Shown: in pieces, positions 14,131 through 21,141 of the stretch
Layout: the number at the start of each line of letters is the position of its first letter
Position numbering within the stretch: the first letter of the stretch is position 1
Source of the DNA: a candidate division WOR-3 bacterium
Lineage (GTDB): Bacteria; Hydrothermota; Tepidihabitantia; SM23-42; JAOAFX01
Direction of reading: 5' to 3'
NCBI GenBank assembly: GCA_037444665.1
Contig: JBBILZ010000039.1
Coordinates: 1-22,929, forward strand
Length of the DNA: 22,929 bases
Position numbers and translations under genes: made by a program
The notes under the pieces: model-generated
Database searches by the model: none
Told to the model about the DNA's origin: nothing
The model's input: only the letters and a program-made list of their open reading frames with translations

Positions 14131-14158
14131 TTGACAAAATGGAAAAAAGGGATAGACT
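14131..14158 (+). promoter_or_regulatory. Sigma70 promoter of the kinase-activator gene
   Basis: TTGACA-N16-TAGACT; the ORF-track TTG start coincides with the -35 box; in-frame GTG 8 nt after the -10. Confidence 0.6.
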
Positions 14159-14166
14159 ATTTTATT

Positions 14167-17100
14167 GTGGCTAAACCGAGCGTGCAAATCCCGGGTTATA
14201 AATTAAAAACAAGACTGGAGATAGGCAATTATGCCATAGTATATGAAGCACAGGATAAAAAGGGTAATGATTTAATTATAAAAATTTCCCGTGAGAACAC
14301 AAAGGAATTTAACGAACTTGTCAGCCGTGAATTTCAAATCCTTGCGAAATTTAAACATCCCAATATTGTTCGGGTTGAAGACTATGGAACAACCAAGCAG
14401 GGAAGGGCATTCTTTACACTTGAATATGTGAAAGGAAAACCGATAAATAAATGTTTTCACGAATTCAATCAAGAATTTATTCTTGCAATTATTCAGGTGC
14501 TCAATGGTATAGGTGCATTCCATAATAAAAACTTTATTCATTGTGACCTGAAACCAGAGCATATACTTTATGATGCAGAGCAGAAAAAATGTGTTATTAT
14601 TGATTTTGGTTTTGCCGGCATCTCAACGAGTAGAATAAAAGAGTATGGCACTATTGGATACATTGCCCCTGAGGTACTAAAGGGGATTGGTATTGACCAG
14701 CGTAGTGACCTATATTCGCTTGGTGTGATAATCTATGAAGTATTATCAGGAAATAGGCCGGTCAAACCATACAAAGATATCATCAATATTCCGGCTGAGA
14801 TAAATAATATTATCAAAATGTTACTCTCTGATGAGCCATCAGTGCGACCTGCGGTTCCCTTTTTATATGAAACCTTCACACGGTATCTTCCCAAAAAACT
14901 GATTGAGGTACCTTATTATCAGGTCCAATTGCCCATTACCAGTTTTGTGAAGAGTCCTGAGTTTATGGAAAATCTATTAAATCTAAGAGCCGGGACCGTG
15001 GTTGTGAGCGGTGATATGGGTTCAGGTAAGACCCGTTTATTAAAGGAATTGACATATGAGTTTATATTCAGGGATTATGAAGTCTTCTTTTTTACAGGTG
15101 AAACACCATTTCATACTTCATTGTGCAATTATATTGATTGCCCGGACCTGGACCTTTCTCAAAAAGAGGACAGGTACCAGGTCTATGCCGAGATTACAGA
15201 ACAGGTCCTCCAATATGGCAGAAACAAAAATTTTGTTATGATGGTTGATGACCTTGATAATCTGAGTGATTACGACCTCGGTCTATTCCGTTATCTTGGA
15301 CACTGTTTGCAGAAAACATCAATATCTTTAATCGGTGCGGGCAAGCCTGACCCGAGAATAAAAGATTTAAATTTTTTTGAGTTATTTTTAAATCCTTTTT
15401 CAAAAGATGAAATTAAAGAATTGATTGAGAAGACATTTTTCCAGTTCAATATAAAAGGGGATAAAGACCTGAACTGGTTTGTTGATTGGTTACATAAACA
15501 TAGTGGTGGCAATCCCTTGTTCATAACAGAGATTTTAAAGACTCTCTGTAGTCAGGGTGTATTATATTATATTGTAAACAGATGGGAGATAAACGCAGAT
15601 AAACTGGAGGGCATTGTAATTCCTGAGAAAATAGAGGAGGCTATAAATAGAAGATTAGAGGGATTGAATCAAAAAGAGATAGAACTTTTAGAAATCCTCA
15701 CACTGACAGATTGTTTATTAGAACTGGGCACTATTCAGGGCATCATTTCATCGTCACCAGATGTTGAACTGGAAATATTGAAGATACTCGGTCTGATACG
15801 GGAAGAGCATATTGGAGGAAAGAGGTTCTTCAGCCTTTCAAATAAGATATTAAAAATGCTCCTTGAGCAGAAGGTAGAAAGGGGAGAGATAGAGAAGGTC
15901 AGTGAAAAGATTATTCATACACTTGAACAGACTGCGCCATTGCACAAACATTATTATCCAGTGATTGCACATCTATGTGAACGGGTCAATGATAAAGAAA
16001 GGGCATTCAGATATTTTCTTATGTCTGCAAATGAGGCTGAGATTGCCAGGGACTTTAATAATGCAATAGCATACTACATAAAGATAATTGACCGTGCAAA
16101 GGATTTTGAACCTGCACATTATCCTGAATTTTTATTGACCATTGCTGACCTATATTATAAGAGCGGCAAGTATGCGCAGGCGATTGAATATTACAGTGAT
16201 GTGATTAAAAAGGCAGATGGTGTATTAAAGATTAAAGGTCTGTCAGGTCTGGGTAAGGTCTATTCTACTACAGGTGAGCATAAACTTGCCATCCAATATC
16301 TTCAGGAAGCACTGAAGAGGATTAAAAATAAGAAGACCAGGGAATATCTTGAGAACATTAATCGGCTCGCATATTCAATGGCACAGCTCAAAGATTTTGA
16401 TAGTGCAGAAAACCTTTTAAAAGAGTCTTTAATCTTATCACAGGAGGCAAAAGATTATGAATCAGAAGCAGAGGCACTCTATTATTCAGCGAGCCTTGCC
16501 TGGTTCAAGAACGAGATTGAGAAGGGCAAAGGGCTCTGTGAAAGTTTGATTCGTTTCTGTGAGACACATAAACTGAATAAACAACTAACATACGCAGCAA
16601 ACCTCTTGAGTTCTTTTGCTATCCAGACCAGTGATATTGATACAGGCTTAAACGCAATTGAAACGGCGATAACAGGGTTTGAACAATTAAAAAATGATGA
16701 TGCACTTGTGAATGCATTGATAAATAAGGGGTTGCTCCTGATGCATAAGGAAAACTTGAAAACTGTAATAGATATTTATGAAGATGCACTTACAAAGGCA
16801 CAGAAGACCGATAACAAACCGAGCCATAACTCTATATTTATGAGTCTCGCAAGTCTATATGAAGAGTCAGGAAACTTTGAAAAGGCAATTGAATACTATT
16901 GTAAATGCCTTGAGATTGAGCCTGATGCAGTATATGCAAATTATAATATTGCAATGGTCTATATAAAGATGGGTGATTTTAATAAGGCAGAGCAGGTTTT
17001 TGAACAGAAGATTAAGAATAATGATGAGGTATTATATAATATTGGCACTGGTATGTTATATTTGTTTATGGACAAAAAAGAGCGAGCAAGACAGATAATT

Positions 17101-19026
17101 AATAACTACCTTGTGCAATTAGAAAAAGAGAAACCGAGCCAATTGACAATAGTGGAGGCATATCTCAGTGCAAGTATGATATTTTATCAGAACTCTGATT
17201 ATGAAAAGGCAATCCATTATGCACAAAGAGCAAAAGACATTGGATATAGAACTTATCTTGAATCATCCATTGCTGAAGTCTTAATCCAGTTGAGCAGGTT
17301 AAGGTCAAATCAGACAAAGACGATTGATATAACTGATGTTCTGAATAGCTTAAAACAAAAGGGCTATAATTATTATTATGCACTGCTCAAGAGAATTTAT
17401 TTTGAAGCAATGGTTGATATGGATATTGAACTGGATATGTTGAACAATATTGCAAAGGAGAGTGATATACTGGAAAATCTTGTATTGTCAATCAATGCAA
17501 AATATGAAGTGCAAAGGATTCAACAACTAAAATTAAAAATATATCCATTAATCATTGAAAGACTCTCAAAAAGGGGTGTTTCAAGCCAGTACCTTGAGAT
17601 ATTTTCACGACTTGCAGAGATAATCCACAAGAATCTTGGTGATGAGAATCTTGCTGAATATATCCTTGATTTAGTAATAAAGGCTACTGGTGCTGAAAGG
17701 GGCGCACTATTTTTAAAGGCAGATGATAAAATGGAATTGATTGCAGGAAGGAATTTAGATAAACGGACAATAAAGGATGCCAGTGAATTGTCAAAGACTG
17801 CAATTGAGGAGATAAAAAAGGGTAAGATAGTCTTTGTGCCCAATGCACTTGAAGACCCTGATTTTAATATAAAAAAGAGTGTGGTCCTAAATCAGATTCG
17901 CTCAATCCTTTGTATGCCTCTTCTCATCAGTGATAATGTTGTTGGTGCGATATATCTTGATTCAAAGATGCTCGGCTCTATATTTGGAGAACAGGACCGG
18001 GACTTTCTTTTAACCACTGCCAAATTTCTTGCTTCGGTCATTGATAGAGCAAAGGCATATAGAAGATTGGTCCAGGAATTAATACAGGTGAGGGATGGAA
18101 TAATAATGGAGATTGGTAAAGGATACATTCTGGGTAAGTCACGGGCAATAAAAGGAGTTTATAAATTGGTTGATAGTATTGGCCCTTCTGATTCACCTGT
18201 GCTCATTACTGGCGAAACTGGCGTTGGTAAAGGAATGATTGCGCGCTTGATCCACTATCAAAGTAAAAGAAAGGACCGGAAATTTGTCAGTATAAACTGT
18301 GGAACTATTCCTGAGACCCTGCTTGAATCTGAACTTTTCGGTTATAAAAAGGGTGCATTCACAGGTGCGGTAGCGGACAAAAAAGGTTTATTAGAAGAGG
18401 GTGAAGCAGGCACTGTATTCCTTGATGAGATAACAAACACGAGCCCGGCATTCCAGGCAAAGATTCTTGAAGCAGTAGAAGACAAGGTTATCCGCAGGCT
18501 TGGTGAGACGCAGACCAGGAATATTGATGTCAGATTTTTATTTGCAACGAACAAGGATATAGAGATTGAGGTTGAAGAAGGAAGATTTAGAAAGGACCTT
18601 TATTTCCGAATAAATATCTTTATCATCAGGGTGCCAAGTTTAAGGGAAAGAATTGAAGATATCCCAATACTCGCCCAATTCTTCCTTGAATTGAAATCCA
18701 GAGATATGAATAAAAAAGTGCAGGGCATTTCACCAGAGGCGGTCAGGATGTTAAAAGAGTACCCCTGGCCCGGAAATGTGCGTGAACTACAAAATGTCAT
18801 TGAAAGGGCAGTGGTGCTCGCTGAATCAGAGATTATAATGCCCAAACATATAGGCTTTACAAAGGAAAGGGATATATTACCAATAAAGGATATGATTAAA
18901 GAGGCAGTCTTGACTGTGCTCAATCTTACGGGCTGGAAAATAAAAGAGACTGCACAGAGGCTTGGCGTAAATAGAAGGACCATAGAGCGTTACATTAAAA
19001 AATATGGACTCAAAAAGATAGACTGA
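14167..19026 (+). CDS. Ser/Thr kinase - STAND-type ATPase - TPR array - GAF - sigma54 AAA+ activator - Fis HTH fusion (~1619 aa)
   Basis: Kinase: HPNIV, IHCDLKPEHI, IDFG, GTIGYIAPE, DLYSLG. ATPase: GDMGSGKT, MMVDDLD, SGGNPLF. Many TPR-like helices. GAF: AERGALFL...SILCMPL...VGAIYLD. Activator: GETGVGKG, ESELFGYKKGAFTGA, FLDEI, RKDLYFRI, WPGNVRELQN. HTH: TAQRLGVNRRTI. Confidence 0.93.
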   Translation: MAKPSVQIPGYKLKTRLEIGNYAIVYEAQDKKGNDLIIKISRENTKEFNELVSREFQILAKFKHPNIVRVEDYGTTKQGRAFFTLEYVKGKPINKCFHEFNQEFILAIIQVLNGIGAFHNKNFIHCDLKPEHILYDAEQKKCVIIDFGFAGISTSRIKEYGTIGYIAPEVLKGIGIDQRSDLYSLGVIIYEVLSGNRPVKPYKDIINIPAEINNIIKMLLSDEPSVRPAVPFLYETFTRYLPKKLIEVPYYQVQLPITSFVKSPEFMENLLNLRAGTVVVSGDMGSGKTRLLKELTYEFIFRDYEVFFFTGETPFHTSLCNYIDCPDLDLSQKEDRYQVYAEITEQVLQYGRNKNFVMMVDDLDNLSDYDLGLFRYLGHCLQKTSISLIGAGKPDPRIKDLNFFELFLNPFSKDEIKELIEKTFFQFNIKGDKDLNWFVDWLHKHSGGNPLFITEILKTLCSQGVLYYIVNRWEINADKLEGIVIPEKIEEAINRRLEGLNQKEIELLEILTLTDCLLELGTIQGIISSSPDVELEILKILGLIREEHIGGKRFFSLSNKILKMLLEQKVERGEIEKVSEKIIHTLEQTAPLHKHYYPVIAHLCERVNDKERAFRYFLMSANEAEIARDFNNAIAYYIKIIDRAKDFEPAHYPEFLLTIADLYYKSGKYAQAIEYYSDVIKKADGVLKIKGLSGLGKVYSTTGEHKLAIQYLQEALKRIKNKKTREYLENINRLAYSMAQLKDFDSAENLLKESLILSQEAKDYESEAEALYYSASLAWFKNEIEKGKGLCESLIRFCETHKLNKQLTYAANLLSSFAIQTSDIDTGLNAIETAITGFEQLKNDDALVNALINKGLLLMHKENLKTVIDIYEDALTKAQKTDNKPSHNSIFMSLASLYEESGNFEKAIEYYCKCLEIEPDAVYANYNIAMVYIKMGDFNKAEQVFEQKIKNNDEVLYNIGTGMLYLFMDKKERARQIINNYLVQLEKEKPSQLTIVEAYLSASMIFYQNSDYEKAIHYAQRAKDIGYRTYLESSIAEVLIQLSRLRSNQTKTIDITDVLNSLKQKGYNYYYALLKRIYFEAMVDMDIELDMLNNIAKESDILENLVLSINAKYEVQRIQQLKLKIYPLIIERLSKRGVSSQYLEIFSRLAEIIHKNLGDENLAEYILDLVIKATGAERGALFLKADDKMELIAGRNLDKRTIKDASELSKTAIEEIKKGKIVFVPNALEDPDFNIKKSVVLNQIRSILCMPLLISDNVVGAIYLDSKMLGSIFGEQDRDFLLTTAKFLASVIDRAKAYRRLVQELIQVRDGIIMEIGKGYILGKSRAIKGVYKLVDSIGPSDSPVLITGETGVGKGMIARLIHYQSKRKDRKFVSINCGTIPETLLESELFGYKKGAFTGAVADKKGLLEEGEAGTVFLDEITNTSPAFQAKILEAVEDKVIRRLGETQTRNIDVRFLFATNKDIEIEVEEGRFRKDLYFRINIFIIRVPSLRERIEDIPILAQFFLELKSRDMNKKVQGISPEAVRMLKEYPWPGNVRELQNVIERAVVLAESEIIMPKHIGFTKERDILPIKDMIKEAVLTVLNLTGWKIKETAQRLGVNRRTIERYIKKYGLKKID

Positions 19027-19053: not shown

Positions 19054-19215
19054 ATGCGGCAAATTGTCGCATTGGTATGTTGAAAACTACAATAAATTTC
19101 ATACATTTTTTACAGCACTAAAATTATGCGACAGGTTGTCGCATCTATACTTCTAAAATTTTATGAAATTACACCACTTTTTTTAGACGCTGGATTATGC
19201 GACAAATTGTCGCAT
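19054..19215. promoter_or_regulatory. Three 19-bp palindromes ATGCGACA-N3-TGTCGCAT, probable upstream activator sites
   Basis: 19054-19072 ATGCGGCAAATTGTCGCAT; 19126-19144 ATGCGACAGGTTGTCGCAT; 19197-19215 ATGCGACAAATTGTCGCAT; start-to-start spacing 72 and 71 bp. Confidence 0.8.
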
Positions 19216-19263
19216 TTTATAAAGGCAAATTAAAAAAACTCCTGAAATTTCAAGGGTTTTTTC

Positions 19264-19279
19264 TGGCACGAAAATTGCA
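19264..19279 (+). promoter_or_regulatory. Sigma54 (-24/-12) promoter
   Basis: TGGCACG-AAAA-TTGCA matches TGGCACG-N4-TTGCW; followed by AAGGAG SD and ATG 19306. Confidence 0.9.
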
Positions 19280-19305
19280 TATAGAGAATGTAAAAGGAGA
19301 CTACG

Positions 19306-19506
19306 ATGAAAAAAAGAATCATATCAACAGTTATCATCATCCTGGTGCTCGGGACCATATTTGGTCTGAGCCTGCACCAGCATAATAATAACCCGGTTAC
19401 GGGTTCATTAATTGATATTATCAGCCCTGCACTTGCCTATGCTGATTCAGATACGGTCAAAGGTATTTCACCACCACCACCTCCACCACCACCACCAATA
19501 AAATAG
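19306..19506 (+). CDS. Small membrane/secreted peptide with C-terminal nona-proline tract
   Basis: Strong SD downstream of the sigma54 promoter; MKKR plus a hydrophobic stretch; ALAYA motif; ends SPPPPPPPPPIK. Confidence 0.8.
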   Translation: MKKRIISTVIIILVLGTIFGLSLHQHNNNPVTGSLIDIISPALAYADSDTVKGISPPPPPPPPPIK

Positions 19507-19526
19507 TGCTGCAGAAAGGGGCAATT

Positions 19527-19727
19527 ATGGCGCCTGTGCATTTATACGAAATAAAGATGATAGATGGCTCAAAATACCGTGGAGAGATTGCATACAAGGA
19601 CGATAGAATGATTGTTCTGCGCACAAGCAATGGGTTTGGAAGGTCTGCAGGACTCTTTACAAAAGTTCGGTTATTTTATAACGGAATAATCAGTATCCAG
19701 GAACTGGGCTGGCAAAGGAGGATATAA
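19527..19727 (+). CDS. Small hypothetical protein, Sm/LSM-like fold suspected
   Basis: YEIKMIDGSKYRGEIAYKDDRMIVL resembles Sm1 and VRLFYNGIISI resembles Sm2. AAAGGGG before ATG 19527; an alternative GTG at 19506 overlaps the upstream stop. Confidence 0.65.
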   Translation: MAPVHLYEIKMIDGSKYRGEIAYKDDRMIVLRTSNGFGRSAGLFTKVRLFYNGIISIQELGWQRRI

Positions 19728-19733
19728 TAATCC

Positions 19734-19783
19734 CCCCTGAAATGGCTATCCTATCCTGTTACAGGATAGGATAGCCATAGGGG
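19734..19783. terminator. Strong hairpin (18-bp perfect arms) between the LSM-like and HD-GYP genes
   Basis: ATGGCTATCCTATCCTGT-T-ACAGGATAGGATAGCCAT (19742-19778), extended by CCCCT/AGGGG; only a weak U-tract follows. Confidence 0.55.
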
Positions 19784-19791
19784 AATTATTT

Positions 19792-21141
19792 ATGGCTATA
19801 ATTATAATCATTCTTTTAACTATTTTAATACAATTAATCGCAGGGGTATTTTCGTTTATTCATTATAGATACTACAAAGAAATTGTATGGTTATTTATTG
19901 CAATTGCAATTTTTTTAATGGCATTCACAGGAATAGTAAATTTATCTGCTCATTCAAATATTTCAATAATTTCTGCCATCATTGGAACTTTGACCAGTAT
20001 ATTTTTATTATTGGCGGTCTTATTTGGTAAAAAGGTTTTAATAGAATACAAAAAGACCGATGCCCATCTTAAGTCACTCTGGGAGATTGACCGTATAATG
20101 CTCACAAGTTTGACACCACAGACTGTGATAAATTCTATAAAATCTCGCATCCCGGAAATGATTAATTGCGATGCCCTTGCAATTTATGCACTGGATAAAT
20201 TTACCCATACATATTCGGTCTTTGCGAATTACAACCTGACTCAGGATTTTCATAATCAAGTTTTATCAAAAGAAAATGATTTTTTCTGGAATGTTATTGA
20301 TAAAAGAAAGACCAATGTGTTATCTAATCTTTCCGCAGATACTAACTTTGGTTTTCCTGCTATTTTAAAGAATGCTGGATTTACAACCTGTGTAGGCGTG
20401 CCATTAGTGCTCAGGGGTCTGCCTGTGGGCTGTCTCTTTGTATTTTCTTCACGGGCAATTGTATATAACAAAAAAGAAATAAAATTTGTTGAAGGCATAG
20501 CAAGGCAGATTGTTATTGCAATGGAGCGGATGGAGATATTTGAGCGTATCAAAGCAGAATGTTGAGAGTCAGTTCTTGCCCTGGTCCAAGCAATTGAGAT
20601 TCGTGACCCCTGCACAAGAGGCCATTCCCAGCAGGTGGCTAATCTTGCCATTGAAGTTTATAAATATATAAATGGCTCGGACCAAAATTTAGAATTGATT
20701 AAGTATGCTGGGCTATTACATGATGTGGGAAAGATTGCAGTGCCAGAATCAATCCTGAACAAACCTGCCTCATTGAGTAAAGAAGAATGGTTAATTATGA
20801 AAAAACATCCAGTCCAGAGTGCAGAGATAATAAAACCTATCAAGGCACTGGAAAAGATTGTTCCCTGGGTTCTTTATCACCACGAACGACTGGATGGAAG
20901 TGGTTATCCCCAGGGACTGAAGTCCAGTGAGATTCCCATTGAATCAAAGGTGCTTGCAATATGCGATGCATTTTCAGCAATGGTTGGAAAGAGGCCCTAC
21001 CGTGATGGTTTTACAATTGAGCAGGCAATAGATGAAATAAAGAGATTTGCTGGTAAACAGTTTGACCCGGAGGTTGTAAAGATATTTTTAAAGTTACCTG
21101 AAGAGAAATTAAAATTCGTAACGCCGGAGAAACCTTCATAA
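19792..21141 (+). pseudogene. Membrane GAF + HD-GYP cyclic-dinucleotide phosphodiesterase interrupted by one in-frame TGA (20563-20565)
   Basis: ORFs 19792-20565 and 20635-21141 share a frame. Reading through gives ERIKAEC*ESVLALVQAIEIRDPCTRGHSQQVANLA...HDVGKI...HHERLDGSGYPQGL; three N-terminal TM segments and a GAF domain. Confidence 0.8.

Follow-up and report, generated by a model that had tools for sequence, protein, structure and literature searches.

The locus raises the question of whether a short open reading frame that ends in a run of prolines is a gene at all and, if so, what its product does beside the giant regulator that precedes it. The window, which is the whole stretch of 22,929 nucleotides analysed here, comes from a member of candidate division WOR-3. 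The frame (19306..19506, plus strand; 66 residues and a stop) begins 279 nt past the stop of the gene for a 1631-residue regulator. A sequence-only reading had described a basic N-terminus, a hydrophobic segment, a linker, an AYA motif and a 20-residue tail with nine prolines. Translation bears this anatomy out, with the polar linker lying between the hydrophobic segment and PALAYA, and the proline tract does consist of eight CCA codons and one CCT, followed by two codons and TAG. The same reading left two options for the product: release of the tail at AYA as a Pro-rich peptide, or ribosome stalling that couples EF-P status to translation of an LSM-like gene behind it. The features of the locus are as follows, with the basis of each assignment in brackets.

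14131..19026, plus strand: gene for a 1631-residue protein made up of Ser/Thr kinase, STAND-type AAA ATPase, TPR solenoid, GAF, sigma-54 AAA+ and HTH parts (Pfam)
19055..19071, no strand: enhancer palindrome 1, 17 bp (sequence)
19127..19143, no strand: enhancer palindrome 2, 72 bp after the first (sequence)
19198..19214, no strand: enhancer palindrome 3, 71 bp after the second (sequence)
19264..19279, plus strand: sigma-54 -24/-12 promoter (motif)
19294..19299, plus strand: ribosome-binding site AAGGAG of the pre-peptide gene (sequence)
19306..19506, plus strand: pre-peptide gene, 66 residues (translation, homologues, codon and pN/pS analysis)
19318..19371, plus strand: hydrophobic signal or anchor segment, about residues 5-22 (sequence, alignment)
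19393..19443, plus strand: amphipathic segment (residues 30-40) and signal-peptidase-I-type site PALAYA (residues 41-46) (motif conservation, shuffles)
19444..19503, plus strand: predicted mature peptide of 20 residues, Asp-led and Pro-rich (putative cleavage)
19471-19497, plus strand: nine-proline run of the predicted mature peptide (sequence)
about 19516-19521, plus strand: the Sm gene's own ribosome site (sequence)
19527..19727, plus strand: gene for a 66-residue Sm/Hfq-fold protein, ATG start at 19527 (homologue starts, structure model)
19742..19778, plus strand: hairpin in the gap that separates the Sm gene from the HD-GYP gene, with a perfect 18-bp stem and no U-tract (z = -5.75)
19792..21141, plus strand: membrane-GAF-HD-GYP gene, c-di-GMP phosphodiesterase-like (Pfam, NCBIfam)

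Judged from comparison of homologues, the pre-peptide frame is a genuine gene, conserved within candidate phylum WOR-3 and under purifying selection. A search of 61 related genomes gave 29 full-length homologues in 27 genomes, the source genome counted. Two genomes (G031 and G038) contribute two copies each, one further copy is truncated by a contig end, and six weak loci without an Sm gene (L031-L036) were excluded from the set. Most homologues have a GGAG-like site ahead of the start codon, and pooled pN/pS is 0.33 over the 10 same-genus copies. The longest proline runs of the homologues measure 3-9 residues and are written with all four codons (CCA 82, CCG 60, CCT 19, CCC 10), which indicates that selection maintains proline rather than a CCA repeat; a neutral CCA microsatellite was rejected on this ground. 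The sequence-only reading had asked whether the AYA site and the proline run are conserved, and both are kept across the homologues. It had also named an unconserved frame or a neutral CCA tract as fatal to its proposal; neither was found, and the gene therefore stands. The source genome has 902 short frames with a ribosome site, of which 37 are signal-peptide-like, and among those 37 only the pre-peptide and one lipoprotein-like frame have 10 Pro or Gly in the last 20 residues. Searches of Pfam and NCBIfam returned no family for the pre-peptide, and an Atlas search returned no usable match.

The precursor is probably exported and cleaved between AYA and the aspartate that follows. The pattern P/S-x-x-small-x-A followed by Asp is kept in 28/29 homologues, with predicted tails of 15-23 residues. 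In three paralogues (L053, L062 and L071) the linker is absent and AYA stands directly behind the hydrophobic core, as in a canonical short signal peptide, which supports cleavage at the same junction. The first option of the sequence-only reading thus gains ground from both observations. In other precursors (L056, L058, L060, L061, L098 and L117), Pro-rich cores are repeated behind an ordinary signal, and signal peptidase I is encoded in the source genome. The earlier concern about the distance of AYA from the membrane segment was well placed, the site lying 22-32 residues beyond the hydrophobic core in the homologues. Compared with shuffled sequences, the 11-residue stretch leading up to the site is significantly amphipathic (p<0.05) in 17/28 copies, the window copy having p = 0.098. 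RsiV is likewise cut by signal peptidase beyond its membrane helix and next to amphipathic helices, which block cleavage until lysozyme binds (PMC6066255). The likeness is one of cleavage geometry only: RsiV is an anti-sigma factor and has a large sensor domain. The precursor might instead escape cleavage and remain in the membrane as an anchored microprotein with an exposed polyproline rod. The distance of AYA from the core would suit such an anchor, as would the block that helices of this kind impose in RsiV until ligand binding (PMC6066255). However, paralogues with canonical spacing retain the same site, and 28/29 copies preserve the pattern of Pro at -6, a small residue at both -3 and -1, and Asp at +1, so that an uncleaved anchor appears very unlikely.

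The pre-peptide gene is very probably switched on by the adjacent regulator, to judge from the promoter region and the regulator's own motifs. The regulator carries Walker A/B and GAFTGA motifs, and the attributes of a sigma-54 enhancer-binding protein (EBP), namely a GAFTGA-bearing AAA+ domain, a C-terminal HTH and a -24/-12 target, are all recognizable in sequence. It lies directly upstream of the pre-peptide in 23/30 loci; in the remaining 7/30 the regulator is on another contig (G016, G022 and G025), the locus is cut by a contig end (two) or the pre-peptide is a second copy (two). A -24/-12 motif precedes 26/29 pre-peptide homologues and is accompanied by pairs of palindromes spaced by about 70 bp, and rpoN is present in the source genome. 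Only five matches to the palindrome, with up to 2 mismatches, occur in that genome; three of them are the sites listed above, so the local regulon would be nearly one promoter. The palindrome sequence follows the DNA-binding helix of the neighbouring regulator's HTH in the loci compared: an [NS]R[RK]T[IV][EQ]RY helix goes with TGCG[AG]CA arms in 8/8 loci, which come from related genomes and are non-independent, and of the 15 helices that could be read, the remaining 7 pair with other arms. A AAATTTCA element at 19245-19260, just upstream of the -24 box and kept in many homologues, resembles the IHF-site consensus.

In having GAF, GAFTGA-bearing AAA+ and HTH domains and palindromic enhancers upstream of a -24/-12 promoter, the regulator resembles NifA, NorR and FhlA, but it has about 1150 extra N-terminal residues that comprise the kinase, STAND and TPR parts. 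The NCBIfam equivalog scores listed for it are all below cut-off. The TPR region is modelled as a long solenoid (mean pLDDT 91.8) that resembles LGN (TM 0.72-0.73 on target) and OGT, a generic likeness to peptide-binding solenoids. It is the most divergent part of the protein, with 22-41% identity vs 65-78% for the AAA+ domain among 10 distant orthologues, which is weak evidence because TPRs drift fast. Prediction of a complex between this region (residues 590-1160) and peptide residues 37-66 gave a score of 0.02 in two runs, which counts neither for nor against binding. In the kinase part (14131-14900 of the window), a D[LI]KPEH catalytic loop is found in 10/10 aligned rows that cover it and the Gly-rich loop is degenerate. 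Hanks kinases usually carry Asn where this loop has His, and the kinase activity may be atypical.

The pairing of regulator and peptide reaches across much of the phylum and has the look of a peptide-based feedback or signalling circuit not described before. The regulator's GAF profile matches 177/272 WOR-3 genomes. Among the 150 matches listed, 40 regulator loci were hand-picked for spread, and 38 could be judged for a partner frame, defined as short, provided with a ribosome site, rich in Pro or Pro/Gly and within 900 nt of the regulator. Such a frame follows 24/38 of these regulators vs 13/1048 ends of long frames in the source genome (window included), a control that flatters the contrast since that genome is AT-rich. 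A hydrophobic signal-like segment is present in 16/24 partner frames and absent from 8/24, the signal-less ones being 16-38 residues long. No qualifying peptide was found at 14/38 regulator loci. At some of these, HD-GYP genes or larger secreted proteins follow the regulator; at L109-L111 a larger secreted protein occupies the peptide's place, and at L120 and L121 short signal-bearing frames fall below the cut-off. L103 and L095 share a near-identical core led by MDAPI, preceded by a signal in the former and by none in the latter. Together with the canonical-signal, multi-core and signal-less forms, this marks the core as the conserved unit, and the core can apparently act where the cytoplasmic regulator is. 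The Sm gene is confined to part of the phylum, so the constant pair is regulator and peptide and not peptide and Sm protein. After the regulator at L088, a 330-residue secreted protein (L088:1770-2760, oriented) has at its start a short Pro-rich motif that recalls the free peptides, and L111 is similar. At the distant metagenome locus L079, the regulator is followed by a 60-residue, signal-bearing, Pro-rich frame.

Within the order, the Sm-like gene stands behind the pre-peptide in 30/30 loci. Its product is modelled as a five-stranded barrel with no N-terminal helix (pLDDT 79.6), for which the top Foldseek rows are all Hfq (TM about 0.68, E about 0.003), and VIA-align gives a Z of about 7 against Hfq, with one unrelated chain scoring 8.7. 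The predicted five-stranded Sm barrel is shared with Hfq, whereas the modelled lack of an N-terminal helix, the lack of a Pfam Hfq match and a conserved C-terminal GW set the protein apart. No family for it was found in Pfam or NCBIfam, a PDB sequence search with its profile gave nothing below E 0.2, and an Atlas search led to unnamed clusters. It represents an unannotated Sm/Hfq-fold family in a genome in which canonical Hfq was not found. The gene occurs in 55/272 WOR-3 genomes at E 0.001, and distant forms align to the near profile with a probability of 98%. Solo Sm genes with sigma-70-like promoters exist, as do second copies with their own sigma-54 promoter. The L062 locus (G035:C1:868000-880000) is an array with repeated enhancer and sigma-54 sites, under which lie a single gene for a short signal peptide, two genes of HD-GYP type and four of the Sm fold. 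A viral contig (L082) carries a weak match (34%) to the Sm protein.

The second option of the sequence-only reading, in which stalling on the proline run makes translation of the Sm gene depend on EF-P status (or, in a wider form considered here, on export force), much as a SecM or MifM leader would, is extremely unlikely. PPP stalls ribosomes in the absence of EF-P; in most order-level copies, 1-3 codons separate the end of the PPP run from the stop, and an Sm gene comes next in 30/30 such loci. EF-P is encoded in the source genome and may thus be required to translate the pre-peptide, yet there is no sign of coupling. The GTG at 19506 does overlap the TAG by one base, as had been described, but the conserved start of the Sm gene lies elsewhere. 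The overlap is found in 2/29 loci, the window and its 98%-identical relative, and coupling through it was rejected. The conserved ATG of the Sm gene lies 7-26 nt past the peptide stop with its own purine-rich site in 27/29 loci, the search pattern having missed two. In SecM and MifM arrest leaders, a hairpin hides the downstream ribosome site until the ribosome stalls; in the loci compared, no conserved hairpin covers the Sm ribosome site, and a hidden site was rejected on this ground. The Sm start region is less accessible than in synonymous controls in only 10/27 loci, and its pairing with the peptide tail (the Pro codons) is 0.0 in the window. Furthermore, Sm genes also follow Gly-rich tails without PPP, Pro-rich homologous peptides often lack an Sm gene behind them, and solo Sm genes occur.

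For the function of the pair, the reading put forward here, as possible rather than probable, is that the pre-peptide is the dedicated partner of the adjacent EBP and that the exported peptide returns to switch its own activator. In the initial step, for which sequence support is strong, the EBP would bind the three palindromes and fire the sigma-54 promoter, from which a single mRNA would carry both the peptide gene and the gene of the Sm/Hfq-fold protein; the putative regulon of relatives includes an HD-GYP c-di-GMP enzyme. The precursor would then, as is likely, be exported by Sec, the amphipathic helix presenting AYA to signal peptidase I, and a 20-residue, Asp-led polyproline peptide would be freed outside the inner membrane. 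WOR-3 is a phylum with TonB-type (diderm) envelope proteins. Finally, the peptide would accumulate as a self or kin signal, re-enter the cytoplasm, bind the TPR sensor and switch the STAND-EBP, and the resulting autoinduction loop would tune the Hfq-like protein and c-di-GMP. For most bacterial STAND-TPR regulators, no activating ligand is known to us. The regulator, promoter, enhancer and candidate 20-residue ligand lie in one 5.6-kb piece that could be rebuilt in a laboratory host, and the signal-bearing, signal-less and multi-core variants, together with the matched HTH and enhancer pairs, are natural built-in controls.

Two known systems resemble this arrangement. In Streptomyces, AfsR, a SARP-STAND-TPR protein phosphorylated by AfsK, activates the adjacent afsS (PMC10832544; bioRxiv 10.64898/2026.09.02.748808), and AfsS binds back to AfsR through its repeats (PMC10832544). 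The WOR-3 pair shares with it the plan of a kinase-controlled STAND-TPR activator that fires a small, poorly conserved and often repeat-bearing gene directly downstream. The WOR-3 regulator has the STAND ATPase and TPR sensor within a transcription activator, and the promoter, palindromes and HTH point, by sequence, to activation of the small downstream gene through upstream sites; repeats are found in some pre-peptide homologues and not in the window copy. In contrast to AfsR, the kinase is fused and the output is a sigma-54 AAA+/HTH with GAF, without a SARP domain; the peptide is Pro-rich and often has a Sec signal, an Sm-fold gene follows, and binding back is only predicted. The RRNPP family, such as Rap-Phr, PlcR-PapR and NprR-NprX, consists of adjacent pairs of propeptide and TPR receptor (250-500 residues, Firmicutes) in which the receptor binds re-imported secreted peptides on its TPRs, and peptide signalling through a cytoplasmic receptor is described mainly for Firmicutes (PMC10075063). 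A gene for a propeptide of 10-100 residues beside that of a cytoplasmic TPR regulator is common to RRNPP and WOR-3, the WOR-3 precursor having 66 residues and a putative Sec signal that motif conservation and the canonical paralogues favour. The candidate WOR-3 receptor, TPR-bearing as well, has 1631 residues with kinase, STAND, GAF and sigma-54 modules, and its host is not one of the Firmicutes. Further differences are that no Opp permease was found in the order genomes searched and that the predicted product has 15-23 residues and is Pro-rich. The cassette works like AfsR/AfsS or RRNPP, yet fails membership of both on the features tested. A literature search, with most subscription papers outside its reach, found no description of a regulator-peptide cassette of this kind.

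Re-import of RRNPP peptides is usually by Opp. OppC_N was above cut-off in 0/49 order genomes, the ABC permeases of the source genome look like phosphate and sugar types, and neither PTR2 nor SbmA was found there; Opp, PTR2 and SbmA were rejected as importers, none being found in the genomes searched. An OPT-family transporter is encoded once in the source genome and in 61/272 WOR-3 genomes, but in only 2/31 genomes of one family (f2) in which signal-bearing peptides are common; with so patchy a distribution it was rejected as the general importer. In three close kin, an OPT gene adjoins the regulator divergently (G005, L038:42-1958; G011, L132:6826-8730; G004, L133:6947-8410). The source genome encodes five OppA-like domains, tied to kinases, chemoreceptors or TonB. 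Two SBP_bac_5 lipoproteins (C20:34550-37557 and C68:7672-10579) directly precede membrane histidine kinases and not ABC permeases, and such orphans could serve to sense peptides outside the cytoplasm. An MCP signalling domain is fused to an OppA-like SBP_bac_5 domain in two proteins of about 1050 residues (C12:7212-10352 and C44:9333-12479), and another (C37:4842-6911) is an SBP_bac_5-TonB_C fusion.

Export and return are favoured by the conservation of the gene, the sigma-54 motif, the match of HTH and palindrome, the phylum-wide pairing, the existence of signal-bearing and signal-less cores, the likeness of the TPR model, the AfsR/AfsS and RRNPP precedents and the OPT adjacency. Against them stand the missing Opp-type importer, PTR2 and SbmA, the rarity of OPT in f2, the loci without a peptide, the four paralogues that sit directly before HD-GYP, the little address information that low-complexity tails carry and the distance of AYA from the core. 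Two further accounts are retained because no Opp importer was found and binding is only predicted. The Pro-rich core may bind the EBP in the cytoplasm as a cell-autonomous, AfsS-like feedback for which the signal sequence is a sink; the core would build up only if export or signal peptidase were impaired, and the loop would monitor secretion or the envelope. This is unlikely, though the signal-less third of the partner frames suits it, no known peptide importer tracks the signal-bearing forms, and AfsS acts intracellularly through its repeats (PMC10832544). Precursors with several cores behind a signal are easier to explain with the exported cores as the product, and a sink that could remain anchored has no need of a conserved cleavage site. 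That the peptide is an exported regulon output without feedback on the EBP, sensed outside by another receptor (the orphan OppA-like lipoproteins beside histidine kinases are an example) or acting in the envelope, is quite unlikely. The position of the two SBP_bac_5 proteins beside membrane kinases would agree with it, as would the larger secreted proteins at L109-L111 and the fusion at L088; however, homologues that share the core but lack a signal have no Sec route to receptors of this kind, and the tight pairing with one regulator family fits a ligand and its receptor. In its widest form, export and return would amount to a peptide-pheromone system of WOR-3, in which an NLR-like kinase-STAND-TPR protein is the sigma-54 activator, a polyproline peptide is its ligand and import proceeds without Opp. 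Lineages would toggle between cell-to-cell signalling, where a signal is gained, sometimes with several cores, and private feedback, where it is lost. This joint proposal is doubtful.

HD-GYP genes recur in the surroundings of the cassette. They share the same enhancer and sigma-54 promoter in L056, L057, L062 and L029, and they lie directly behind the four paralogous regulators (L084-L087). The copy in the window is broken by an in-frame TGA at 20563-20565, with a local 2-nt shift, while a near-identical copy in G008 is intact; the TGA is either a mark of a recent pseudogene or an assembly slip.
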